DNA of 64,000 nucleotides from NCBI RefSeq assembly GCF_988242995.1, contig NZ_OZ547043.1, one strand, 5' to 3'. Both the position numbers and the translations under genes were made by a program. Shown here piece after piece: positions 9,752 through 47,177 of this stretch (its first letter is position 1; each line of letters begins with the position of its first letter). The notes beneath the pieces are model-generated. The model ran no database searches and was not told the DNA's origin. It saw only the letters and a list, made by a program, of their open reading frames with translations.

Positions 9752-11000
9752 GGGAGTTCTACCGCAGGGGCGGGGAATTCTAAGTGATATCCATCATCGC
9801 ATCCAGTGCGTCCGGTTTATCCCCGCTGACGCGGGGAACACGCTTTTCCCCACGCGTCCAGATCTTCGACTGGCGGTTTATCCCCGCTGGCGCGGGGAAC
9901 ACTCATTAAATTGTTTTTCCCGATCCCAGCTCTGCGGTTTATCCCCGCTGGCGCGGGGAACACCTGGAGCGCAGAAAGTTTGATATCGAAAATGCCGGTT
10001 TATCCCCGCTGGCGCGGGGAACACAGTTAACAACCCGCGCCGAACAAGCCCGACAACGGTTTATCCCCGCTGGCGCGGGGAACACCAGGTTCGTAAAGGT
10101 GAACACGGCACGACGGCCGGTTTATCCCCGCTGGCGCGGGGAACACGCGTCGCCATTCTATTAGCTTTTCCTCATCACCGGTTTATCCCCGCTGGCGCGG
10201 GGAACACCCGACAATCTCCGCCTCCAGTCGGTCGACCTGCGGTTTATCCCCGCTGGCGCGGGGAACACTGTGCCCGACTGCGTGCCGCGTCGAGCGCCTG
10301 CGGTTTATCCCCGCTGGCGCGGGGAACACTTCGCCGCCATCATCCTGTGGTGCCAGTTGACCGGTTTATCCCCGCTGGCGCGGGGAACACATACCGCAGC
10401 AAATTACGGTTCCAGAAACGCGCGGTTTATCCCCGCTGGCGCGGGGAACACTGACACGTTAAACGGTGCGTTGTCGTCGCTGTCGGTTTATCCCCGCTGG
10501 CGCGGGGAACACCCTGCCGCCCCCTTTAGCCCATATGGGGGCGGCGGTTTATCCCCGCTGGCGCGGGGAACACTTCAACATTACGAAACGGGATCACGCC
10601 GCTGACGGTTTATCCCCGCTGGCGCGGGGAACACCGGCTCCGCGTCGACATAAAAGTCCTCGGGATCGGTTTATCCCCGCTGGCGCGGGGAACACATATT
10701 TCGCCCCGTCACGCTGAATCAGCCAGCCGGTTTATCCCCGCTGGCGCGGGGAACACTCGCTTTTAAAGCGCCGGAGGAAAGTAAGCTCCGGTTTATCCCC
10801 GCTGGCGCGGGGAACACTAGCATAAATTACCCGATCAGATCGCGGACATCGGTTTATCCCCGCTGGCGCGGGGAACACTCGATCAAAAATTTACAACCAA
10901 AGGCTTCAACCGGTTTATCCCCGCTGGCGCGGGGAACACTCCCCGGTATCAGAAATAATTCCCTGCTCGATCGGTTTATCCCCGCTGGCGCGGGGAACAC
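9752..11000 (-). CRISPR. CRISPR array, type I-E repeats, 21 repeats and 20 spacers
   Basis: 29 bp repeat CGGTTTATCCCCGCTGGCGCGGGGAACAC with exact 61 bp period, starts at 9813, 9874, ... 10972; all spacers 32 bp. Repeat at 9813 has one mismatch (CTGACGCG). A degenerate terminal repeat sits at 9752-9780 (about 19/29 matches). Leader is on the right, so crRNA is read on the minus strand. Confidence 0.98.
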
Positions 11001-11096: not shown

Positions 11097-12306
<1,210 letters not shown>

Positions 12307-12310
<4 letters not shown>

Positions 12311-12957
12311 GCCTCTGCTCCGGGTTTGATCAGCATCAGACCACAGCCGAACGCGCGGCTTTTGCCATACCCCTGACTGAGACGTTGCAGAAATAACCCG
12401 GGATCGGTGACCGTAAGCATCCCCGTATAATCCACGCTACTGAACTGGATCAGTTGCCGGGAGTTTTCCCGCCACAGTTGCTGTTGTCGGTAGGCATCAA
12501 CCGAGGTATCCAGCAGTGTAAAACCGCTTCTCTCCCCCTGCGCTGCCAGCCAGTCCAGCGCCGCCTGTTGTTGATGCAACCAGACATCACTTCCTTCCGC
12601 CTGCCCCCTCACCTGCCGTTTCGCCTCCATCAGCAGATCGTGGCGCTTGCCCGCTTTACAGATTGTTGGATTCGCCCGCAGGTTGAAACAAAGTTGTTGT
12701 CCGGTACGCAGCTCGGGCACAAATGACCGGCATTCGATGGTGAACGTTTCACTTTCCGCCGGGCGTTCCTGCGACAGGACAAAAAAGCGAAACGCCCCCT
12801 GGAGTTCTTCCCGACGATAAAGAAATTGCCTTTCTTTGCCGCCAGGAAAAAGATCCCACAGCCACTGATGCATTACATATTCACCGCGATCCACCAAATG
12901 CAGCAACTGCGCAGGCGAAAGCTGGCCGGTATGTAAGGTTATTCTTGAGAGGTACAT
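12307..12957 (-). CDS. casE: Cas6e/CasE crRNA endoribonuclease
   Basis: ORF track 12307..13095; start moved to the internal Met (MYLSRITLHTGQ...) so it does not run through casD; 216 aa; ends GCGLMLIKP. Start is a judgement call. Confidence 0.8.
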
Positions 12958-13685
12958 GGTTCCTCCTTGCTGAGCCACGGCCCCTGATTGATGGTGCGTT
13001 CCCCAAACAGCCACTGCTGACGATTTAAAGGAACATCCCGGCGACGTAATATTTTGCTCGCGACCAGGCCGTCGTGTTCCCCTTCCCACCAGCATTCATC
13101 CTGAAGTTTCGGGAGTGAGACTTTCAGTTCGCGGAAACTATCCTGATACTGTTGGTATGCGTTACGTAAGACATCAGACGCGTTGCCTTCGAGCAGTAAC
13201 GGCGCAAGTGGTAACGCCAGCGGATGACTTTTTCGCCCCAGATAAAGCGGAAAAACCGGATGACGTAAACCGTCCTGCAACTGTTCAAGCCTGTAAGGCG
13301 CATCGGGGGTTGTTGCCACCGCCACCATCCACCAGGCATCGGTGTAGTAGTCGCGCCGGGAGATAATCGCGCTCAGAAGTTCAGGGGCGCTCAACTCTTC
13401 GCGACGGCTGAAATAACGCGCTTTACGCACCTCTTTTGGCATCTGGACCGTGTGATAATCCCGTGCCCAGCGCGGGTTACGGCTGGCGCAAACCACCAGT
13501 GAATAGTGGCGGTTAAACGCGTTTAATCGTTCGGTATCATCACGCCGAATCCCTACCCCGGCAGCCAGCAGCCCCAGCAATGCTGAGCGCGAAGGCAGTT
13601 CATGGGTATGACGCACTTCGCCGGGGGCATCGACGCCCCAGGATGCCATTGGCCCATGAAGCTGAAAAATCAAATATTGGCTCAT
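12939..13685 (-). CDS. casD: Cas5e/CasD Cascade subunit
   Basis: ORF track 248 aa (MSQYLIFQLHGPMASWG...); overlaps casE start. Confidence 0.85.
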   Translation of the reverse strand: MSQYLIFQLHGPMASWGVDAPGEVRHTHELPSRSALLGLLAAGVGIRRDDTERLNAFNRHYSLVVCASRNPRWARDYHTVQMPKEVRKARYFSRREELSAPELLSAIISRRDYYTDAWWMVAVATTPDAPYRLEQLQDGLRHPVFPLYLGRKSHPLALPLAPLLLEGNASDVLRNAYQQYQDSFRELKVSLPKLQDECWWEGEHDGLVASKILRRRDVPLNRQQWLFGERTINQGPWLSKEEPCTSQE

Positions 13686-13695
13686 TAGCCGCCCC

Positions 13696-14751
13696 TTACG
13701 CGCAGATAAAGTCCAGCACGTCCTTCATGCTTCCCTGTTTGTTCATCACGTCAAAGCTTGCGCATTCGGTCTTCTGTTCATAGACCGTATTCATATTTTC
13801 GCGAAGCGTTGTAATACGCTGCACCGCCACATCTAACTGCCGGGTGCCATTAATGGGTTCATAGAAAGCCGCCGCCAGAGAGCGTGGTTGTTCAGTGCCT
13901 TTTTCTGCCAGCGCCCAGGAGGCGTAGGCACGGCTGGCAAAGCTGTTCTGTTTGCCGGTTGGGGAGACTTTAAGTGCGGCTTCTGTAAAGGCGCGCAAGG
14001 TCTGATTAGCTAACGCTTCGTCACCGCCGAGGTTTTCGACCAGCAGATCTTTATCGATGCAGATATAGGTGTAGAACAGCGCAGAACCGAATCCGGTTTC
14101 ACCAAGATGCCCGGCACCGGCATCTTCAGAAGCCTGGCGCAAATCATCAACGGCGGTGAAAAAATCATCTTCGACAATCGTTTCACTGACACCAAATGCA
14201 TGCGCGACCTGGCAGGCGGCTTCAACATTAAATTCGGGTTTATTCGCCAGCATACGACCAAACATAGCGATATCTACCGCCATGCGATCTTTACGTAACA
14301 ACGCGAGATCTTCCTCTTTTGGCGCGCGCTTTTCTTCGGCCAGTTGATGGGCCAGCGCTTTTACGGCGTCAAATTCTGCCGGGCTGATATGGACTAGCTG
14401 TTCAGTTTCGGCGTTAGTGAGCGGATCTTTTGGTTTTTTGTCGTTTTTAGCTTTCCCAAGATAATCCGCAATTTTTGCCGCCCATTCGATGGCTTTTTTC
14501 TCTTCGATGCCTTTCTCAATCAGGATAGTTGCCGCCTCACGCGCAATACGCCCACTGCGAATACCAATATGGCCCGCCAGTGCCTGTTCAAAAAGTGCAG
14601 AAGTGCGCCACGCACGTTTCAGACTTTGTGAGGAAACGCGCAGACGCGTTGCTCCACCCAGTACCACAGTTTTTGGCGCACCGGTGTCATCACGGTTAAG
14701 GTTGGCAGCAGGGTAAGCGGTTAACAAATGAAGCTGAATAAATGTCGTCAT
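13696..14751 (-). CDS. casC: Cas7e/CasC Cascade backbone subunit
   Basis: ORF track 351 aa (MTTFIQLHLLTAYPAANLNRDDTGAPK...), recognised as Cas7e. Confidence 0.92.
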   Translation of the reverse strand: MTTFIQLHLLTAYPAANLNRDDTGAPKTVVLGGATRLRVSSQSLKRAWRTSALFEQALAGHIGIRSGRIAREAATILIEKGIEEKKAIEWAAKIADYLGKAKNDKKPKDPLTNAETEQLVHISPAEFDAVKALAHQLAEEKRAPKEEDLALLRKDRMAVDIAMFGRMLANKPEFNVEAACQVAHAFGVSETIVEDDFFTAVDDLRQASEDAGAGHLGETGFGSALFYTYICIDKDLLVENLGGDEALANQTLRAFTEAALKVSPTGKQNSFASRAYASWALAEKGTEQPRSLAAAFYEPINGTRQLDVAVQRITTLRENMNTVYEQKTECASFDVMNKQGSMKDVLDFICA

Positions 14752-14765
14752 GAGATAGTCCTTTA

Positions 14766-15302
14766 TTAATTTTGTTCGTTATCGGCGTCGCCAGCCTGGT
14801 AATATTCCAGCGCCCAGCGGATACGGATAAATTCTGTTGGCCGCTGCTGGCGGCGGTGATGATTGAGCAGGTCGTCGCTCTCCTGGCACCAGCGGAAAAT
14901 ATCGTCTGCCAAAGAGATAAGATTGACGGAACCATTTAATAATTTGACCGCGCGACGTAACTGACGCAGTAAATCATCAGGCGTTTTTACTGCCGACAGG
15001 CGAGTAAAACGCCCCTCCGACATTACCGCCGCCAGCTGCGCGGCAAAAGGCTGCCGTTCATCAATAGCTTTAACATTGGCGCTAACTGCGGCGACCAGCG
15101 CCAGTGCGGTAAAACGCCACTCTTGTGCTTCAATTTTCCACAAAGTGTGGGTCTGCATCAGCAGAGAACGAAACCCTTCTGACAGACAAACATCATTAAC
15201 CGTTGTGCTACGCCGCAGACTGGCACGATTGCCGCGTTTTTCCTGCAACTCTTCGTGCCATTTACGCAGCGTGGCTTTGTGCTCCTCTTTTACAATACTC
15301 AT
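14766..15302 (-). CDS. casB: Cse2/CasB Cascade small subunit
   Basis: ORF track 178 aa between casA and casC; exact start uncertain. Confidence 0.8.
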   Translation of the reverse strand: MSIVKEEHKATLRKWHEELQEKRGNRASLRRSTTVNDVCLSEGFRSLLMQTHTLWKIEAQEWRFTALALVAAVSANVKAIDERQPFAAQLAAVMSEGRFTRLSAVKTPDDLLRQLRRAVKLLNGSVNLISLADDIFRWCQESDDLLNHHRRQQRPTEFIRIRWALEYYQAGDADNEQN

Positions 15303-16867
15303 TCAGCAGCCTCCTGCTTTTTCTCCCTGGCGGCTTTAGCATTTTGCTTCTCCGCCGATGTTGTAAAATATTTCTTGCGCGCGGTCATGACGCGTTTCAA
15401 ATCAACGGGCTCATATGGATTGGTGAAGACACGCTCGTCAAAATCCTGACGCGCGAATAACCAAATTTCCTTTTGCCATTTGCTGAGTAATTCATCCGCA
15501 TCCTGACCTTCTTCAATGTGGCGCACTAACCTCAGGAAGCGATGCTGAGTTTTGTTCCAGAAGTCGATATCCACAAAACTGAAATCACCCCGTGCACCTT
15601 TTGGATCGGAGAACCACGCTTCTTTCAATGCACTCCGTAACAGACTCAGAATCCGTGAAGCCGTTTGCGCAGCCAGCCGCAGCTTCGGTATCTGGCCTTC
15701 TTTTTTATCGAGCAGCAGCGGAAAATGGTGTTCGTACCAACAGCGCGCTTTCATGTTGTCAAAATCATAACCAAATCCCCACAGGCCCACTTTTGCCTGC
15801 TTGAGACTGCTGGCATTAAAGAGTTTCACCACCAGCGCGGGAAGTTCCGTATTGTTTTCTGATTTACCCGTTTCGATAAGGCCTAACCAGTCGCGCCAGA
15901 TTAAACCGCCTGGTTGTGGTTTGACCGAGTAAAACTCGCCGCCCTCTTTAAGGGGTACACGGTAAGGCGTTAAGGGATGCTGCCACATGGCATAATTCGC
16001 GCCGTAATTTTTGGTCGTCATCAGGCTCAGGAGCGCGTCGTTCTGCTCGCCGCAAATATCGCAGTTGCCGACTGTCGTGGTATTAAAATCAATACGAATA
16101 CGCCGCGGCATTCCCCAGTACGCCTGGAGTTTATTAACCTGATCATCGGTTACCACCGCACCGGCCAGTTCGCTGGTACGCGTCGGGCCAAGCCAGGGGA
16201 AAACCAGATCGTCAAATTTTTTGGGTAGCGGTAAGTCGGCTTCGTCCTGCGGCATCACATTGAGCCACAGTTTGCGCCACAAGGGCGTTTGTTGATTGCC
16301 CTGATATTCCTGTAATTCAATCAGAGTGGTCATCGGCCCACCGCCGCGTAAACCGGTGCGGTAGCCTTTACCACCTGACGGCGCATTTAACTGTAGGGAG
16401 AACAGAGCTAACGCAGAACAATGTGGGCAAAGGTATTCCGTTACACCACGCTTGATAAAGTGGTCTTTATTAAACTTCGTTGTTTGAGCGCCGGGAATCT
16501 CAGGCAGTAGCGAAGCGACCTGAACTTTATCTCCTGTGAGCGCCTCGAAATCCTGCATAAATGAAGGGGAATCTGGCCCAAACTGGAAAGCGTGTTCTAA
16601 GGACAGCAATGCTTCCCGTAGCTTTTCAGATTCCAGTCCGTCTTCCCAGATATCATCCCAACGACGATGATCTTTTGGCGCAAAGCTGGTTTGTAGTAGC
16701 CCCAGCAAAAACTGCCATGCCGCTCCCTGGAGATCTGCCCGTGGCGCAGCAATATCGACAACATTTTCATCCGCCAGATCGACAGGCGCCAGTTTGCCTG
16801 TCGTTCCGTCTTTATAACGAACGGGCAACCACGGGGTTGTCAGAAGTGAAAACGAGTTCATACGCAT
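15299..16867 (-). CDS. casA: Cse1/CasA Cascade large subunit
   Basis: ORF track 522 aa; 4 nt overlap with casB. Confidence 0.9.
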   Translation of the reverse strand: MRMNSFSLLTTPWLPVRYKDGTTGKLAPVDLADENVVDIAAPRADLQGAAWQFLLGLLQTSFAPKDHRRWDDIWEDGLESEKLREALLSLEHAFQFGPDSPSFMQDFEALTGDKVQVASLLPEIPGAQTTKFNKDHFIKRGVTEYLCPHCSALALFSLQLNAPSGGKGYRTGLRGGGPMTTLIELQEYQGNQQTPLWRKLWLNVMPQDEADLPLPKKFDDLVFPWLGPTRTSELAGAVVTDDQVNKLQAYWGMPRRIRIDFNTTTVGNCDICGEQNDALLSLMTTKNYGANYAMWQHPLTPYRVPLKEGGEFYSVKPQPGGLIWRDWLGLIETGKSENNTELPALVVKLFNASSLKQAKVGLWGFGYDFDNMKARCWYEHHFPLLLDKKEGQIPKLRLAAQTASRILSLLRSALKEAWFSDPKGARGDFSFVDIDFWNKTQHRFLRLVRHIEEGQDADELLSKWQKEIWLFARQDFDERVFTNPYEPVDLKRVMTARKKYFTTSAEKQNAKAAREKKQEAAE

Positions 16868-16958
16868 CCTCTCGTAAAAAAGACCATCCTAGGTCGGTTG
16901 TCCATCATTCCATCCTTTTCGGTGTATCAACTATTCAGAGAGCCCTGTCGCAGGCATC

Positions 16959-19658
16959 TCAACCAACCTTGCCAGTCAATCCTTCCATAGCCGAATACCC
17001 GCAACTTTCGTCATCGGTAACTAAAATCACGTTTGCCATCTCCGGATCTTTCCGCTGTTCAATGCACCACTGCCTGAACGCTTCCCCTTCCAGTAAAGAA
17101 AACTCATCCCGATGTTTTTTCCACCAGCTTCGACGCACTCTGACAACGCTCATTTCCCATGCGTGAGCACCGTTGGCATAAGGCTTCACCACACTGGCAA
17201 TACAGGTAGCCAGCCACAGGGAAACAGACTCCTCCGCCAGACGTGTCGACAGCTTTTCCGGAAGGTAATCGTTGATATTGGCGGCATAGCCAGGCCTGAA
17301 GTTCAGCACAAACTTTTTAGCCATTGCGCGATCGCAGTAATATTTGCCCACTTGCTCCTGCTCGCTGCGGGCAAATCCTTCCGGCATTACCACGTCCTCA
17401 CCGTAGACTGATTCAATAAGAAGGCGGGCTGCGTGTGGCATTTGAATAGCGCCTTGCTCACGCAGTACACGCTGCGTCAGCCAGATTCGTCCATGATCGG
17501 GATAGACATATGCACTGTTACGCATGGCACTGCCGAACCATTCGTCACCTGGAGCGTCGTCCCAGACGGGGGCCAGAATCAGCAATTCAGGAGGGGAACG
17601 CTCGTCTTTTCCGTCACGCTTTAACTGACCATTAATATCGCGGATATGCCGCTGTAATCGCCCCGCTCGCTGGATCAGCAAATCAACAGGGGCCAGGTCG
17701 GAAATCATTTCGTCCATATCGCAATCAACGCTCGACTCTAAGACCTGAGTACAAATGAGGACTTTTCCGGCACGCTGTGAGCTATCTTCTTTACCGAAGC
17801 GTGCCAGCGTTTCCGTTTCAATTCGCTGGCGATCGCTAAAAGCAAAGCGGCTATGAAACAGAGAAAGGCTGGAAGCAGGAATGACGCCGCGGGCAAGCAA
17901 CTGACGATAAACCTTAATAGCGTCATCGACAGAATTCCGGATCCAGGCGATGCATTTCCCCTGACTTACTGCCGATTCGATACGCGCAATACATTCTTGT
18001 TCGCTATGAAGCCAACCCACGCTCACGCTACGCTCAACGTCTTTGCGCGTCGCTACCCGGTGTGAATGCACATCGGATTTCGTAACGTGCGTCAGCCAGG
18101 GGTAATCATCCTTTTCCAGGAACGGAGCTTCTTGCTGGCCCTCTGTACCACGCGCAAAGGCAGCAACGAGTTTGTCGCACTGCTGTTGAGATAACGTGGC
18201 AGAAAGCAAAATGACGCTGTTTCCGCCACGCGCCTGCCGCTCGATCAGCCCTTCAAGAATGCATGACATGTAAGCGTCACAGGCATGGATCTCATCAGCC
18301 AGCAGGATTTTGTTACTCAGTCCCAGAAGCCGCAGATTATTATGTTTGAACGGCATCACAGCCATCATCGCCTGATCCAGCGTGCCGACGCCAATTTCAG
18401 CCAGTAGCGCCTTCTTGTTACTGTCGGCAAACCAGGCCGCACATCCCTGACTGAACGTTTGTTCATCCGGTTCTTCTGACCCGACTAAATCACCGGACCA
18501 GAGTGATTCATTAAAGCGGTCCATTAATGTTCGGGCACTGTGTGCCAGCACCAGGCTGGGGCGGGACTCTGGCGAATAGAAAGCAAGCCAGGTTTTGACC
18601 AGTCGATCGTACATGGCATTGGCCGTTGCCATTGTTGGCAGGCCAAAAAACAAACCCTGCGCTTTACCCGCAGCCATCAACCTGTGCGCCAGGATAAGCG
18701 CCGCTTCCGTTTTACCTGCGCCAGTCACATCTTCCAGAATAAATAACTGTGGCCCTGGCTGGCTGATATCCAGATCCAGCACCTTTTGCTGTAACGGTGT
18801 CGGATTCTCAATAAAAGGAAACAGCGTATTAATTCCGGTGAAAGGCGCGACTTTTGCTTTTAGAGGAAAGACGGTTAAGGCGTTTTGAGCCTGAACTAAA
18901 GTTTTCTGCCAGTAACCTTTATTATCCATTGGGTGTGCGACGCGTGGAAAAAATCGCGTTGACGAACCCGTCCAGTCTGCGAGCACGACGGTTGCAGAGA
19001 TATACCAGGAAAGGTGTTTTATAAGTTCAATGCCCTCATCATCATCCCAGAATGCGGGGATCTCTATGAGCGGAAACAGTGGTTTGATTTCAAGAAGAAA
19101 ATCTCGCGCGGCAGCTTTGTCTTCAGGCAGAAAATTATCCAGTTCATCAATACGGTCAGGCGGGCGACCATGATGCCCGGTAGTTATGGGCATCCACATC
19201 GCTATTACACGTGTAAGTTTGCGGGGAGAGAGTGAAGAGGAAGGAAGTAACTCCTGACATTCACTTAAATAATGATGCCACAACCAGTAGCCCAGCGTTG
19301 AATGAGAGATTTTTTCGTAATTTTTTCTAGCACCTTCCGGAACCCTGAGTTTCGGGTGCAGGTAAAGTTGCTGAAATGAGCGGGCAAATTTACCAGTATC
19401 GTGCCAGCACAACAACCAGGCGAAAAATTGAGCCGCCTGTTCCTTGTCAGAAATCTCTAATTGACGAAAATAGTCAGCCAGTCCGAAGCAATTGCTTTTA
19501 ACCATTAAATAGCCCATCGCGGCTACATCCAGCGAATGCCAGCAAAGAAGGTGATAGTCGTCGCCCCCGTCTTTCTCGCCGCGTCGGGTTTTTCCCCAGA
19601 AATCAAAAAAAGTCACAATATTTTTATCCTTCAGTAAACTTAAAGGATATTTACGCAT
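16959..19658 (-). CDS. cas3: Cas3 HD-nuclease/helicase
   Basis: ORF track 899 aa with N-terminal HD region and DEAD/DEAH helicase motifs; only 91 bp upstream of casA. Confidence 0.93.
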   Translation of the reverse strand: MRKYPLSLLKDKNIVTFFDFWGKTRRGEKDGGDDYHLLCWHSLDVAAMGYLMVKSNCFGLADYFRQLEISDKEQAAQFFAWLLCWHDTGKFARSFQQLYLHPKLRVPEGARKNYEKISHSTLGYWLWHHYLSECQELLPSSSLSPRKLTRVIAMWMPITTGHHGRPPDRIDELDNFLPEDKAAARDFLLEIKPLFPLIEIPAFWDDDEGIELIKHLSWYISATVVLADWTGSSTRFFPRVAHPMDNKGYWQKTLVQAQNALTVFPLKAKVAPFTGINTLFPFIENPTPLQQKVLDLDISQPGPQLFILEDVTGAGKTEAALILAHRLMAAGKAQGLFFGLPTMATANAMYDRLVKTWLAFYSPESRPSLVLAHSARTLMDRFNESLWSGDLVGSEEPDEQTFSQGCAAWFADSNKKALLAEIGVGTLDQAMMAVMPFKHNNLRLLGLSNKILLADEIHACDAYMSCILEGLIERQARGGNSVILLSATLSQQQCDKLVAAFARGTEGQQEAPFLEKDDYPWLTHVTKSDVHSHRVATRKDVERSVSVGWLHSEQECIARIESAVSQGKCIAWIRNSVDDAIKVYRQLLARGVIPASSLSLFHSRFAFSDRQRIETETLARFGKEDSSQRAGKVLICTQVLESSVDCDMDEMISDLAPVDLLIQRAGRLQRHIRDINGQLKRDGKDERSPPELLILAPVWDDAPGDEWFGSAMRNSAYVYPDHGRIWLTQRVLREQGAIQMPHAARLLIESVYGEDVVMPEGFARSEQEQVGKYYCDRAMAKKFVLNFRPGYAANINDYLPEKLSTRLAEESVSLWLATCIASVVKPYANGAHAWEMSVVRVRRSWWKKHRDEFSLLEGEAFRQWCIEQRKDPEMANVILVTDDESCGYSAMEGLTGKVG

Positions 19659-19852
19659 ATATTAAAAATTATCTGTGATATATATCGTTCAATAAAATAT
19701 TTACATTATGAATAATCAAATAATTTTCATCAGTAATATATATGAATAATAAACATAGGCATAATATTCACATAAACAATATAAATTAAAAAAGGGTGCA
19801 GGAGACCAAACCATCACAATTCAATACGCGGGGTTTTACCCCCGCGTGGTGG

Positions 19853-20005
19853 CTACTTCTTCGATTCGTAAGCGAGAACTGCCTTAAACTCCATACCACG
19901 TTCTCTGATACTCAACTCACACAACGAGTCGCCTACCATCAGCGTGAATCCCAGTACTGTACAACACAGTACGATGATTGCCACAAGGGCATATTTTGTC
20001 AGCAT
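19853..20005 (-). CDS. Hok/Gef-family type I toxin (HokE-like), 50 aa
   Basis: Hand-translated minus-strand [53 protein letters not shown]: one TM helix then the Hok signature (SLCE...IR...AYES). GGGAGG Shine-Dalgarno 6 nt upstream. Not in the ORF track (below size cut-off); the 84 aa plus-strand ORF 19796..20050 is its antisense. Confidence 0.7.
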
Positions 20006-36111: not shown

Positions 36112-36249
36112 TGGTTATCCCCGCTGGCGCGGGGAACATAAGTTCGACAACTTAAAAAATGATAACAAGTCCGGTTTATCCCCGCTGATGCAGGGAACAT
36201 AATAAAAACTTTAACTAGTTCGGTTTATCCCTGTTTTTACAAGGAATAT
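36112..36249 (-). CRISPR. Degenerate CRISPR remnant (3 decayed repeats)
   Basis: TGGTTATCCCCGCTGGCGCGGGGAACAT, CGGTTTATCCCCGCTGATGCAGGGAACAT and CGGTTTATCCCTGTTTTTACAAGGAATAT, separated by 32 bp and 20 bp. Confidence 0.75.
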
Positions 36250-36702
36250 TAACTACACTCGATGTATTTAGAATAAAAGACAATACGAATCGCACTTTAT
36301 CAATTTTCACTTAAAGTATGAACTGGATATCTTTATTCATAAGAACTATTCATCAACAGCGTATAGAGGCGATTATGTAAAACCACTCATTAGCCTCAAA
36401 ACAAAGACAAATTTCCAGATTTATTACTTAATCAATGAATAACAAGCTTAAAAAATACACTGTTATTCTAAAGAAAAAATTAACAGGCATTAATTAATAT
36501 TAAAAAAATAATATGTTAAAATTTCTTAACGGTTTAAGGATTATACAAATAACACTTTGATTAAATTTTATTTTTTGTATCGATAATTGTGAACTTGTCA
36601 TATATGGAGAGCTATTTTGAACATGAGGTGTTACGTGGATATGTTGCTTAATACGAGTACTGCTAATATAAAAACTTGAGAAAGAGATAACGGGTTATAT
36701 GG

Positions 36703-37219
36703 TGGTTTATTCCCGCTGGTGCGGGGAACTCATCAGTGATATCCAACATTGCGGAGCTAAACGCGGTTTATCCCCGCTGGCGCGGGGAACTCAATTAGCC
36801 CGCCTCGCGCGGGTTTTTTTGTGCCGGTTTATCCCCGCTGGCGCGGGGAACTCTTTACTTATCTGCAAATATTTTTTGTCAGCTGCGGTTTATCCCCGCT
36901 GGCGCGGGGAACTCACGAACGCGGCACACCAGGGCGTCTCATCGTCCGGTTTATCCCCGCTGGCGCGGGGAACTCGAACACGACAGGAGTGATAAATGTA
37001 CGCACATCGGTTTATCCCCGCTGGCGCGGGGAACTCGGCTGATAGTGCTTCTGATTATTCGGCGCAAGCGGTTTATCCCCGCTGGCGCGGGGAACTCTAG
37101 GACCCAATATAAAACCGACTGGTTATTTTCGGTTTATCCCCGCTGGCGCGGGGAACTCTTTCAGTCTGGAACACAACGGCGTTAAATAACCGGTTTATCC
37201 CCGCTGGCGCGGGGAACTC
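36703..37219 (-). CRISPR. Orphan CRISPR array, type I-E repeats, 9 repeats and 8 spacers
   Basis: Repeat CGGTTTATCCCCGCTGGCGCGGGGAACTC, period 61 bp, starts 36703 (degenerate distal repeat, 3 mismatches), 36764 ... 37191; 32 bp spacers; leader on the right; no adjacent cas genes. Confidence 0.97.
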
Positions 37220-39455: not shown

Positions 39456-40769
<1,314 letters not shown>

Positions 40770-40841
40770 TCACTAGTTAAACTGAAACTCCAGACAAACA
40801 ACGCGTACCCAGGGTACGCGTTGCCGTTCTAACTTTTTTAC

Positions 40842-42494
<1,653 letters not shown>

Positions 42495-42706
42495 TTAGGT
42501 TGAAAAGACGATGGAATAACCAGGACGGGAAAGCAGTATACCCGAACATGACCTGTGCCACAAACTTTCATTATCCCTCCTCTTCGCCAGCGCACTATTG
42601 AAATCAGGAGTGAGAAAATAGCCCCTTTGGGGTAAATGTTTTTGACGCAAATCAAGCGCTTGTCATTTAAAAAATGACACAAATCGCGCTTGACCACGTA
42701 ATTCCC

Positions 42707-43498
42707 TTAGAGATCAATTTCCTGCCGTTTTACCTGTTGCCAGACTTCTTCCATTGTTTCGAGGTCAACACCTGTCATTTCCAGTCCACGCGCGGCAACA
42801 ATACGCTCCACTTCGCGAAAACGACGCTCGAATTTTTCATTGGCTTTTTGCAATGCGATTTCCGCTTTTGTCCCTAAATGACGAGCCAGATTGACCGTGG
42901 CAAACAGCAGGTCGCCCATTTCCTCCTCCAGTTTAGCCTGGTCGATAACAGCCTGCCGTGCCTCGTACATCACCTCGTCGATCTCTTCGTAGACTTTATC
43001 GACTACCGGACCAAGCGTCGTCCAGTCAAAACCAACGTTGGCGCAACGTTTCTGGATTTTTTGTGCACGCATTAATGCCGGTAAACTACGAGGAATATCG
43101 TCCAGCGCCGAATGCTGCGCTTTCTGCGCGCGCTCTTCGGTTTTGATTTGCTCCCAACGGGCAAGCACTTCACTACTGTTTTCGGCAGAACTGTCAGCAA
43201 AAACATGCGGATGGCGACGTTCTAATTTATCGCTGATCGCGGCGCAAATATCATTAAAGTCAAAGCGCCCTTCTTCCTGGGCCATTTGTGCGTAAAACAC
43301 CACCTGGAACAGCAGATCGCCCAGTTCACCGCGCAGATCGTCAAAATCTTCACGGGCGATGGCGTCCAGCACCTCGTAGGTTTCTTCAAGGGTGTAAGGC
43401 GCAATGGTGGCAAATGTCTGCTCTTTATCCCACGGGCAGCCGTTTTCCGGGTCGCGCAGGCGCTGCATGATGGTGAGCAAACGGTCGATTTGATTCAT
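42707..43498 (-). CDS. mazG: Nucleoside triphosphate pyrophosphohydrolase MazG
   Basis: ORF track 263 aa, tandem MazG domains. Confidence 0.93.
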   Translation of the reverse strand: MNQIDRLLTIMQRLRDPENGCPWDKEQTFATIAPYTLEETYEVLDAIAREDFDDLRGELGDLLFQVVFYAQMAQEEGRFDFNDICAAISDKLERRHPHVFADSSAENSSEVLARWEQIKTEERAQKAQHSALDDIPRSLPALMRAQKIQKRCANVGFDWTTLGPVVDKVYEEIDEVMYEARQAVIDQAKLEEEMGDLLFATVNLARHLGTKAEIALQKANEKFERRFREVERIVAARGLEMTGVDLETMEEVWQQVKRQEIDL

Positions 43499-43593
43499 TG
43501 AATTGTCCTGAAAATTGCGGGTCTGTCAGGTGTAATACCTTCGAGTAAAAGATATCGCTGGATACGGCTGACGCCATATCCAGCTATGTAAGA

Positions 43594-45828
43594 CTAACTC
43601 CCGTGCAACCGACGCGCGTCGATAACATCCGGCACCTGGTTGAGTTTACCCAGCACGCGGCCCAGCACTTGCAGGTTGTAAATCTCAATGGTCATGTCGA
43701 TGGTCGCCAGTTGCTGTTTGGTGTCGCTACGGCTGGCAACGCCAAGCACGTTCACCTTCTCGTTGGCGAGAATGGTCGTGATATCACGTAACAACCCACT
43801 ACGATCATTAGCCACCACGCGGACCACCAGCGAATATCCGGCGGAGTAGCTCTCGCCCCATACCGCGTCAACAATGCGTTCTGGCGCATGGGAGCGCAGT
43901 TCCGCCAGTTGCTCACAGTCTGCACGATGCACTGAAATACCGCGTCCCTGGGTAATGAAGCCGACAATCTCATCTCCAGGAATCGGCTGGCAGCAGCGCG
44001 CGATGTGGTGCATCAGGTTACCGACACCTTCAACCACCACACGACCGTTATCTTTACTGCGGTTTTGCGGCGTGTAGCTTTTTTGCTGAAGTTGCTTCAG
44101 CGCGGCGGCGTCCTGCTCTTCGGCACTCGGCTTATTAAATTGCGATTGCAGGAAGTTCACCATCTGATTGAGACGGATATCCCCGCCACCAATCGCCGCC
44201 AGCAACTCGTCGACATCATTGAAGTTGTAACGCGGCAGCAGATGTTTTTCTGCTTCTTTCAGGCTGATCCCCAGATGTTCCAGCTCGTCGTCAAGGATTT
44301 GCCGCCCAGCCAGAATGTTTTTGTCACGGTCCTGTTTACGGAACCAGGCGTGAATTTTCGAACGCCCACGGCTGGTTGTGACGTAACCGAGGTTTGGGTT
44401 TAACCAGTCACGGCTGGGGTTCGGCTGTTTCTGGGTGATAATTTCAATCTGGTCGCCCATCTGCAGCTGGTAGGTGAACGGCACAATGCGCCCGCCAATT
44501 TTTGCCCCGATGCAGCGGTGTCCGACATCACTGTGGATGTGGTAAGCGAAGTCCAGCGGTGTTGATCCCGCAGGCAAATCAACGACATCACCTTTCGGCG
44601 TAAAGACGTACACCCGGTCGTCAAAGACCTGGCTACGTACTTCGTCGAGCATTTCGCCGGAATCAGCCATCTCTTCCTGCCACGCAATCAGTTTACGCAG
44701 CCAGGCAATCCGGTCTTCATGTCCCGAACGTGCGCCGCCAGCTGCCGCGCCCTCTTTATATTTCCAGTGCGCAGCAACACCCAACTCTGCATCTTCATGC
44801 ATCTGTTTAGTGCGGATTTGGATCTCAACGGTTTTGCCACCTGGTCCCAGAACCACGGTATGAATAGACTGATAACCGTTTGGTTTCGGGTTAGCGACGT
44901 AATCGTCAAACTCATCCGGCAGGTGGCGATAGTGAGTGTGCACTATCCCCAGTGCGGCATAACAATCCTGTAAACGCTCGGCGACAATACGTACCGCACG
45001 CACATCAAACAGCTCATCGAAGGCGAGGTTCTTTTTCTGCATTTTGCGCCAGATGCTGTAGATGTGTTTCGGACGACCATACACTTCAGCTTTAACGCCT
45101 TCAGCTTTCATCTCAGCGCGCAGATGGCCGACAAACTCTTCGATATAGTGTTCGCGGTCGAGACGGCGTTCATGCAGCAGTTTTGCGATGCGTTTGTATT
45201 CGGTCGGGTGGAGATAACGGAAGCAGTAATCTTCCAGCTCCCATTTCAGTTGTCCAATCCCAAGACGGTTCGCCAACGGCGCGTAGATATTGGTGCACTC
45301 TTTTGCCGCCAGTACGCGTTCATCTTCCGGCGCGTCTTTTACTTCGCGCAGATGAGCAATACGCTCTGCCAGTTTGATGACCACGCAGCGAAAATCATCG
45401 ACCATCGCCAATAACATCCGGCGAACGTTATCGACCTGTTCGGAGGAAACAGAATCGGTATGCGTCGCTTTCAGCTGGCGGATCGCCGCCATATCACGCA
45501 CGCCGTGAATAAGGTTAACGACCGACTTACCGACGCTCTCACGCAGCACATCTTCGCTGACTACGTTGGCATCCGCCAGAGGGAACAGCAGCGCCGCCCG
45601 CAGCGTGTCAATGTCCATACTTAATGTCGAGAGGATCTCCACCATCTCAACACCACGCCACAATAACAGACTGGCATCCGGATGCCCCTGCGTCTGTTGC
45701 AGACAATACGCCCAGGTTTCGGCTAAGCACTCACACGACTTCTGGCTGGTAATACCCAGACTTGCGATCCATTTTTCCGGATCAAATTCACCAGCCTTAT
45801 TGATATGTGCACTTCTTACCGCAACCAT
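43594..45828 (-). CDS. relA: GTP pyrophosphokinase ((p)ppGpp synthetase I)
   Basis: ORF track 744 aa ending ...DARRLHGS. Confidence 0.97.
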   Translation of the reverse strand: MVAVRSAHINKAGEFDPEKWIASLGITSQKSCECLAETWAYCLQQTQGHPDASLLLWRGVEMVEILSTLSMDIDTLRAALLFPLADANVVSEDVLRESVGKSVVNLIHGVRDMAAIRQLKATHTDSVSSEQVDNVRRMLLAMVDDFRCVVIKLAERIAHLREVKDAPEDERVLAAKECTNIYAPLANRLGIGQLKWELEDYCFRYLHPTEYKRIAKLLHERRLDREHYIEEFVGHLRAEMKAEGVKAEVYGRPKHIYSIWRKMQKKNLAFDELFDVRAVRIVAERLQDCYAALGIVHTHYRHLPDEFDDYVANPKPNGYQSIHTVVLGPGGKTVEIQIRTKQMHEDAELGVAAHWKYKEGAAAGGARSGHEDRIAWLRKLIAWQEEMADSGEMLDEVRSQVFDDRVYVFTPKGDVVDLPAGSTPLDFAYHIHSDVGHRCIGAKIGGRIVPFTYQLQMGDQIEIITQKQPNPSRDWLNPNLGYVTTSRGRSKIHAWFRKQDRDKNILAGRQILDDELEHLGISLKEAEKHLLPRYNFNDVDELLAAIGGGDIRLNQMVNFLQSQFNKPSAEEQDAAALKQLQQKSYTPQNRSKDNGRVVVEGVGNLMHHIARCCQPIPGDEIVGFITQGRGISVHRADCEQLAELRSHAPERIVDAVWGESYSAGYSLVVRVVANDRSGLLRDITTILANEKVNVLGVASRSDTKQQLATIDMTIEIYNLQVLGRVLGKLNQVPDVIDARRLHGS

Positions 45829-45875
45829 CGTCCTCTCCTTTAGGGACCAGACCTGCCGAAATCGGCAAATCGTAA

Positions 45876-47177
45876 CTATTTAACGCGCGAGAAAAGTACC
45901 ATCGATTCCAGATGTCCCGTGTGTGGGAACATATCCAGCATCGCCAGTCGCGCAATGGTATATCCTGCTTTTAATAACGCTTCGCTATCCCGAGCCAGCG
46001 TTGCAGGGTTACAGGATACATAAACTATACGAATAGGTTCCAGTTTTATAATTTGCTGCATAACACCTGCGGCACCTGCTCGCGCGGGGTCCAGCAACAC
46101 TTTATCGAAGCCGTTTTTCGCCCACGGCTGCTTTGTGACATCTTCTTCAAGATTTTCGTGATAAAACGTCACATTGTGTAAGTCATTAAGACGCGCATTC
46201 TGCTGGCCTTTTTCCACCAGCGCCGGAACACCTTCTACACCCACCACACTGGCAGCTTGTGTCGCCAATGGCAGTGTAAAGTTGCCCATACCGCAGAACA
46301 GATCCAGTACGCGATCTTCAGGTTGCACATCCAGCCATTCCAACGCACACGCTACCATTTTTTGGTTCACACCCGCATTGACCTGAATAAAATCGCGCGG
46401 GCTAAAAGTTAAGCGCAACCCGTTTGAGTCATACCAGGGCATCTCACCAGCGACGGTTTCGAGTATCTCACTATCGGGGGCGAGATACAGATCCAGGCCT
46501 TCAGAATGCGAAAAGCGTTCCAGTTTTTCGCGATCAGCCGAACTTAGCGGTGCGGTATGGCGCAAAATCATCAGCGTGCCGCTGGTTGCCTGTACCAGTT
46601 CAACATGACCAAGATGGCGCATAGCTTGTAAGCTGCCCAGGCATGCCCTGACTTTGGGCAGCAATGCTTCAAGTTGGGGCACTAAAATGGGGCATTGTTT
46701 AACGTCGACAATGTCACTGGAGCCCGCTTTGCGAAAGCCCATCTGAAGTTGCTGTGTTTTCGGTAAGTAGTTCAAACTTAAACGCGCGCGACGGCGATAG
46801 CCCCAGGGAACATCGGCGATCACTTCAGAGACCTCGTGTTTCATTAATCGGGCGAGTGCCGCACTTTTGCTTCGCTGCTGTAAATCCTCGCTGGCGTGTT
46901 GTTGCTGACAGCCGCCGCATACGCCAAAATGAGGGCAGCGTGGCGTTTCGCGTTCCGGGCTATCGCTTAACCGGCGCACGACTTTAGCGCGGGCGTATTG
47001 TTTTTTATCTTCAGTAACAGTAACTTCCGCGTTTTCCTGTGGCAATAATCCAGGAATAAATAACGCTTTGCCGTTATGTCGTGCCACGCCCTGACCAAAA
47101 GAGTCGAGGTCGTTGACTGAAACAGTTATGATCTGACGCGTCGTCGTGCGTCGTTTTGCAGAGTAGAATTGCGCCAT
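45876..47177 (-). CDS. rlmD: 23S rRNA (uracil1939-C5)-methyltransferase
   Basis: ORF track 433 aa with TRAM region, Fe-S cysteines and SAM-MTase domain. Confidence 0.93.

Follow-up and report, generated by a model that had tools for sequence, protein, structure and literature searches.

The window analysed here, a stretch of 64,000 nucleotides of the E. coli contig NZ_OZ547043.1 (RefSeq assembly GCF_988242995.1), carries relA directly upstream of mazG, with pyrG and rlmD as neighbours of the locus (Table 1). Both proteins match their equivalog profiles at full length, RelA against NF008124 (residues 1-744 of 744, 1678 bits) and MazG against TIGR00444 (419 bits) and NF007113 (370 bits), so that the intact relA and mazG expected of a mazEF-free allele are both present. 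An earlier note on this DNA had placed the relA stop at 43594 and the mazG start at 43498, 95 bp apart and without an open reading frame between them, and these coordinates proved exact. The spacer holds no free-standing open reading frame; only trivial ones occur there, overlapping relA or mazG in other frames. As an annotation, the relA-mazG locus of the window is normal and intact.

Table 1. Features of the relA-mazG locus in the window.
Feature	Coordinates	Strand	Remarks
relA (GTP diphosphokinase)	43594..45828	-	full length, 744 aa; TAG stop 43594-43596; coordinates equal those of the annotated relA of MEI003
relA-mazG spacer, mazEF-free ('empty-site') allele	43499..43593	-	95 bp
Allele-specific segment	43533..43593	-	61 bp; stands where K-12-type strains have the 697-bp mazEF cassette
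REP-like hairpin	43557..43584	-	GCTGGATATGGC-GTCA-GCCGTATCCAGC; 12-bp stem, 4-nt loop; from a terminator-like scan
Tail after the hairpin	43547..43556	-	GATATCTTTT (as RNA GAUAUCUUUU); four-T run 43547..43550
mazG leader, common to both alleles	43499..43532	-	34 bp; AGGA ribosome-binding site 43506..43509
mazG (nucleoside triphosphate pyrophosphohydrolase)	42707..43498	-	full length, 263 aa; ATG 43496-43498; annotated as mazG in MEI003

The absence of the MazEF type II toxin-antitoxin module, which the earlier note had combined with intact relA and mazG, is borne out by these profile matches and by protein searches. Used as tblastn queries, the K-12 MazE and MazF proteins gave no match with E<=1e-3 anywhere in the 64 kb of the window; the window accordingly contains neither an open reading frame for a MazF/PemK-fold toxin nor a mazE frame upstream of and overlapping mazF. 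The autoregulated mazEF promoter and operator palindromes are likewise missing downstream of relA, as the 77-bp relA-mazE spacer of K-12 aligns with the 61-bp segment of the window at a score of 12, against a mean of 12.9 for shuffled sequences. A search of positions 42600..46000 for Rfam families returned no match at E<=1. The order relA-mazE-mazF-mazG that the earlier note gave for K-12, with about 0.7 kb between the outer genes, is correct: the K-12-derived strain EC600 carries mazE and mazF, with 731 bp from the relA stop to the mazG start, and the reference arrangement therefore does not itself lack mazEF at this position.

An alignment of the window, its closest genome MEI003 and K-12 defines how the two alleles differ. 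The sequences are identical up to the relA stop codon and agree again from CACCTGACAG... onwards, 34 bp ahead of the mazG ATG; the stretch between these blocks measures 61 bp in the window and 697 bp in K-12, where it is a cassette that comprises the promoter, both toxin-antitoxin genes and a portion of the mazF-mazG spacer. The window thus shares with the K-12 operon the relA and mazG flanks, at 96.5-97.2% DNA identity, together with the same mazG leader and ribosome-binding site, and differs from it in lacking mazE, mazF and the mazEF promoter/operator palindromes and in containing, where K-12 has its 697 bp, the 61 bp with the REP-like hairpin. The leader hardly differs among the window, MEI003 and K-12, and of the 23 enterobacterial spacers that we read most have a TTTCAGGA motif ahead of mazG. 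Fixed differences between the three mazEF alleles and the five empty alleles compared are confined to 43536-43593.

The 61 bp show no kinship with either end of the K-12 cassette: 766 of 1000 shuffled sequences scored at least as high as the real segment against the relA-mazE spacer, and 892 of 1000 did so against the allele-specific part of the mazF-mazG spacer. The mazEF allele lacks 61 of the spacer's 95 bp, so that the allele found here cannot be the product of a clean deletion of mazEF. Whether the arrangement was ancestral or a clean deletion had been called undecidable from the window; this question is now mostly settled, in that clean deletion of a K-12-type locus does not apply. The alignment with mazEF strains that had been proposed as a way of finding deletion scars or direct repeats revealed neither, as the window bears no remnant of the cassette and no direct or inverted repeats flank the cassette boundaries in K-12, which thus lack a transposon-like signature.

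Within the allele-specific segment, a hairpin begins 10 nt past the relA stop, and the five E. coli empty alleles compared do not differ in it. Its folding energy is -23.3 kcal/mol (z = -7.5), and seven pairs of its stem are G-C, as is typical of the G+C-rich stem-loop of an intrinsic terminator. A lenient scan scores hairpin and tail together as terminator-like, yet the tail offers only four consecutive U, beginning 7 nt past the stem, which is atypical. With so short a T run, set apart from the stem, the hairpin is unlikely to terminate transcription completely.

The hairpin resembles the repetitive extragenic palindromes (REP/BIME elements) of Enterobacteriaceae, of which the canonical REP begins with GTAG. 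Shared features are an imperfect, extragenic palindrome of about 28 nt just past a stop codon, a sequence near GCCGGATAAGGCG...ATCCGGC and a position equal to that of the REPs in Citrobacter and Klebsiella. In local alignments with the REPs that directly follow relA in these genera, including the trailing GC(G/A)AT(A/T)TC, only 0, 1 and 5 of 1000 shuffled sequences scored as high, and the match to a REP consensus was likewise significant against shuffles. The hairpin differs from REP/BIME in its head, which reads ATAG (43584..43587) instead of the GTAG found at the same place in the Escherichia record L003, and in its stem, which is more perfect than that of the Citrobacter REP (-17.7 kcal/mol). 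As REPs form a repeated family, the likeness to those of Citrobacter and Klebsiella is a correspondence of position and sequence rather than proof of orthology. Within the 64-kb window, a search for the 14-nt core of REP that allowed two mismatches recovered the hairpin site and one other match that looks like chance.

With respect to function, the hairpin could act as a REP-type stabiliser of the 3' end of relA mRNA or as a partial terminator, and in this way could set the ratio of relA to mazG expression. MazF would not be made from this locus in the present strain. The only candidate for a mazG promoter in the spacer is a weak sigma-70-like match (9/12, CTGACA-16-GACAAT, 43529..43502), which we find unconvincing because its -10 element ends just 3 nt before the mazG start codon. 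In strains without mazEF, such as UTI89, relA and mazG have been described as an undisturbed bicistronic operon (2020 review, PMC7167474). This description, taken together with the want of a convincing promoter in the spacer, suggests that mazG is transcribed by read-through from relA.

A set of 5426 complete E. coli genomes was searched with a 155-bp query centred on the relA-mazG junction, and matches were counted at a coverage of at least 80%. The mazEF-free junction occurs in 1006 of them and is 100% identical over the 155 bp in MEI003. This agreement with a complete genome, and the recovery of the junction at that coverage from 1006 independent complete assemblies, makes it scarcely conceivable that the mazEF region was collapsed by an assembly or sequencing artefact. 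A 611-bp query for K-12 mazEF matched 4419 genomes; all of these matches are chromosomal and none lies on a plasmid. The relA-mazG locus itself is present in 5425 of the 5426 genomes, which is exactly the sum of 1006 and 4419. The two states are therefore complementary and, at the sensitivity of megablast, the empty-site genomes have no K-12-type mazEF elsewhere.

The junction runs without interruption from the relA stop to the mazG start and is colinear with that of other empty-site genomes, both over the 155-bp query and in the 61-bp segment, which is identical in the window, Nissle 1917, R10, O158:H23 and MEI003. With mazEF-free strains of the UTI89/Nissle 1917 type the window shares gene order, the 95-bp spacer and the 61-bp segment; the differences, a few SNPs in the mazG leader and a relA stop codon that reads TAG in the window and TAA in Nissle 1917 and R10, are of no substance. 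The review cited above, whose reference list includes Fiedoruk 2015 and Ramisetty & Santhosh 2016, regards mazEF as inserted and such loci as plastic, and cites a parDE system at relA-mazG in Salmonella (PMC7167474). The mazEF-free junction is thus a common and published presence/absence polymorphism, and neither a novel feature nor a deletion peculiar to this genome; the unusualness implied by the earlier note does not hold. What we add to the published picture is small: the empty allele has a REP-like signature of 61 bp and is also present in divergent Escherichia lineages, and E. albertii retains a remnant of mazEF.

These counts also bear on the use of K-12 as a reference. Since about one in five complete E. 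coli genomes is without mazEF at relA-mazG, K-12 is not a template for the species at this locus, and phenotypes ascribed to MazEF cannot be universal traits of E. coli.

Beyond E. coli, a MazG query with one genome per species retrieved 80 enterobacterial loci, and 23 of their spacers were read. In 79 of the 80 species representatives relA is the gene immediately upstream of mazG, and the spacer between the two genes measures about 40-420 bp in 76 of them. K-12-type MazE or MazF was found at none of the 80 fetched loci. The spacers of Citrobacter, Klebsiella, Leclercia and others consist mostly of REP-type palindromes (GTAGGCCGGATAAGGCG...CGCCATCCGGC) that start a few bases past the relA stop. 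The order seen in the window, in which the relA stop is followed by the 61 bp with the REP-like hairpin and then by the mazG leader, looks like the ancestral enterobacterial arrangement.

Some of these loci have other contents. In Buttiauxella agrestis ATCC 33320 (L042:1341-2928), a three-gene insert between relA and mazG encodes Hcp (PF05638), a DUF4225 protein and a 109-aa membrane protein, and looks like an orphan type VI effector-immunity island. The approximately 950-bp spacer of Superficieibacter holds an open reading frame for a 112-aa membrane protein (L016:2566-2904) with weak similarity to the membrane protein of Buttiauxella (29% identity, E = 0.003). Six spacers of Pectobacterium, Brenneria and Samsonia (L062, L064, L065, L066, L069 and L073) span about 350-420 bp and carry no convincing open reading frame; the one of the six searched against Rfam, L062, gave no match at gathering level.

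Closer to E. coli, the same empty allele is present in two records that are labelled E. coli and are considerably diverged from the window: L003, which is about 92% identical to it in relA and mazG, and L004, at 94-96%. The segment of L003 aligns over 57 nt with six differences (about 90% conserved) and retains the GTAG head. All 12 stem pairs of its hairpin are standard, including a double change from T-A to C-G. The presence of the empty allele in Escherichia lineages of 92-96% identity argues that this allele is old.

The second allele has left traces in E. albertii NBRC 107761 (= DSM 17582), the representative of its species, whose relA-mazG spacer measures 261 bp (L005:2740-3000). On its left side, 27 of 30 nt correspond to the mazEF promoter region of K-12 (score 43, against a maximum of 28 among shuffled sequences); on its right side, 63 nt match the mazG leader and the mazF-mazG spacer of K-12, with the allele-specific portion of the latter among them (score 104, against a maximum of 24). 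The middle is occupied by REP-type palindromes, one of which matches the Rfam family ES036/CssrF. Judged by this sequence, the relA-mazG locus of E. albertii is a decayed mazEF locus. Its remnants imply that the mazEF allele is also old, or was exchanged between species early, and the REPs between them indicate that such elements can move in after the loss of mazEF.

It could be argued from this case that the window, too, derives from a deletion of mazEF in place, with the scar subsequently colonised by a REP, since the E. albertii spacer seems to document just such a sequence of events, with promoter and mazF-mazG remnants on either side of REP-type palindromes. We consider this highly improbable for the window. 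Its divergence from the mazEF allele begins at the first base past the relA stop and neither end of the cassette is detectable; moreover, the identity of the 61 bp among the five E. coli empty alleles, and the approximately 90% of it that is kept in an Escherichia lineage divergent at the level of species, speak for great age. E. albertii shows real loss in place, and the window is without any such scars.

A comparison can also be drawn with ccdO157 at folA-apaH, a decaying chromosomal toxin-antitoxin locus (cited in PMC7167474). Both cases represent a presence/absence polymorphism of a toxin-antitoxin cassette between core genes; they differ in that the window contains no decay intermediates, the remnant-bearing form of relA-mazG having been seen only in E. 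albertii.

Among E. coli strains, allele state does not go with the haplotype of the flanks. Over a 12-kb flank, the empty-site strain O158:H23 and the mazEF carrier 23AR0303 are both 99.3% identical to the window. Allele state was related to phylogroup for named strains only: LF82 carries mazEF and Nissle 1917 does not, and these two strains, both of phylogroup B2, have most of their flanking SNPs in common. A linkage between flank haplotype and allele state was considered and rejected, as the empty alleles of Nissle 1917 and R10 share their flanking SNPs with LF82, a mazEF strain, and not with the window. In every comparison, SNPs are denser in the 1 kb or so nearest the junction. Between the window and MEI003, 12 SNPs fall into 43660..43930, in the 3' part of relA, and none into 39456-43455; the cluster probably marks the boundary of a recombination tract beside the junction. 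Clustered SNPs and alleles that do not track their flanks are the signature of recombinational mosaicism around the locus.

The same observations could be read as a secondary loss by allele replacement, in which a mazEF-bearing ancestor of the window imported the relA-REP-mazG allele from an empty-site strain by homologous recombination, so that the allele would be ancestral and the lineage would have lost mazEF. The equal closeness of 23AR0303 and O158:H23 to the window, the occurrence of both alleles within B2 and the raised SNP density near the junction are all in keeping with it. The mosaic pattern, however, is explained just as well if the relatives gained mazEF by recombination, and each of the best 25 matches covers the 12-kb query and equals it in length (12,001 bases, give or take a few), which means that all of them are without the 636-bp cassette. 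We therefore regard replacement as possible, if on the whole rather unlikely. With both alleles inside B2 and among the window's nearest relatives, the lineage may either never have had mazEF or have regained the empty allele by recombination; in either case, the empty allele itself is of the ancestral type.

Altogether, the reading that we strongly favour is that the window carries an ancestral-looking enterobacterial mazEF-free allele, that the K-12 type arose by substitution of the mazEF cassette for 61 bp, and that the alleles have been exchanged by recombination. The 697-bp unit of promoter, mazE and mazF would have taken the place of the 61-bp segment, both alleles would be old in Escherichia and would now segregate across E. 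coli, and homologous recombination in the conserved flanks, relA and mazG, is the most likely route of exchange. The empty allele of the lineages with 92-96% identity has diverged about as much as the flanking genes, and the mazEF remnants of E. albertii have diverged to a similar degree. We speculate, as a tentative and on balance improbable extension, that the REP-type empty site and the mazEF cassette form a very old polymorphism across Escherichia species, that the cassette entered by replacing a REP, and that REP sites are in general alternates of small chromosomal toxin modules, or landing pads for them, as has been reported for ccdO157 at folA-apaH. The Hcp-DUF4225 insert at relA-mazG of Buttiauxella would, if this is true, fit the same pattern.

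Elsewhere in the window, two CRISPR arrays share the type I-E repeat GTTTATCCCCGCTGGCGCGGGGAAC. The first (9815-10998) has 20 repeats; the second (36113-37217) has 11 repeats and a repeat-free stretch at 36199-36704. Colinearity with MEI003 places a type I-E cas operon at about 11100-19660. The spacer content of the window differs from that of MEI003, and the block from the end of array 1 to the start of array 2 (10728-36137) is 97.75% identical to this genome, against 99.1-99.5% in the other aligned blocks. Between cas3 and cysH, an open reading frame of 50 aa (19853-20005, minus strand) belongs to the Hok/Gef family of type I toxins and is so annotated in MEI003.
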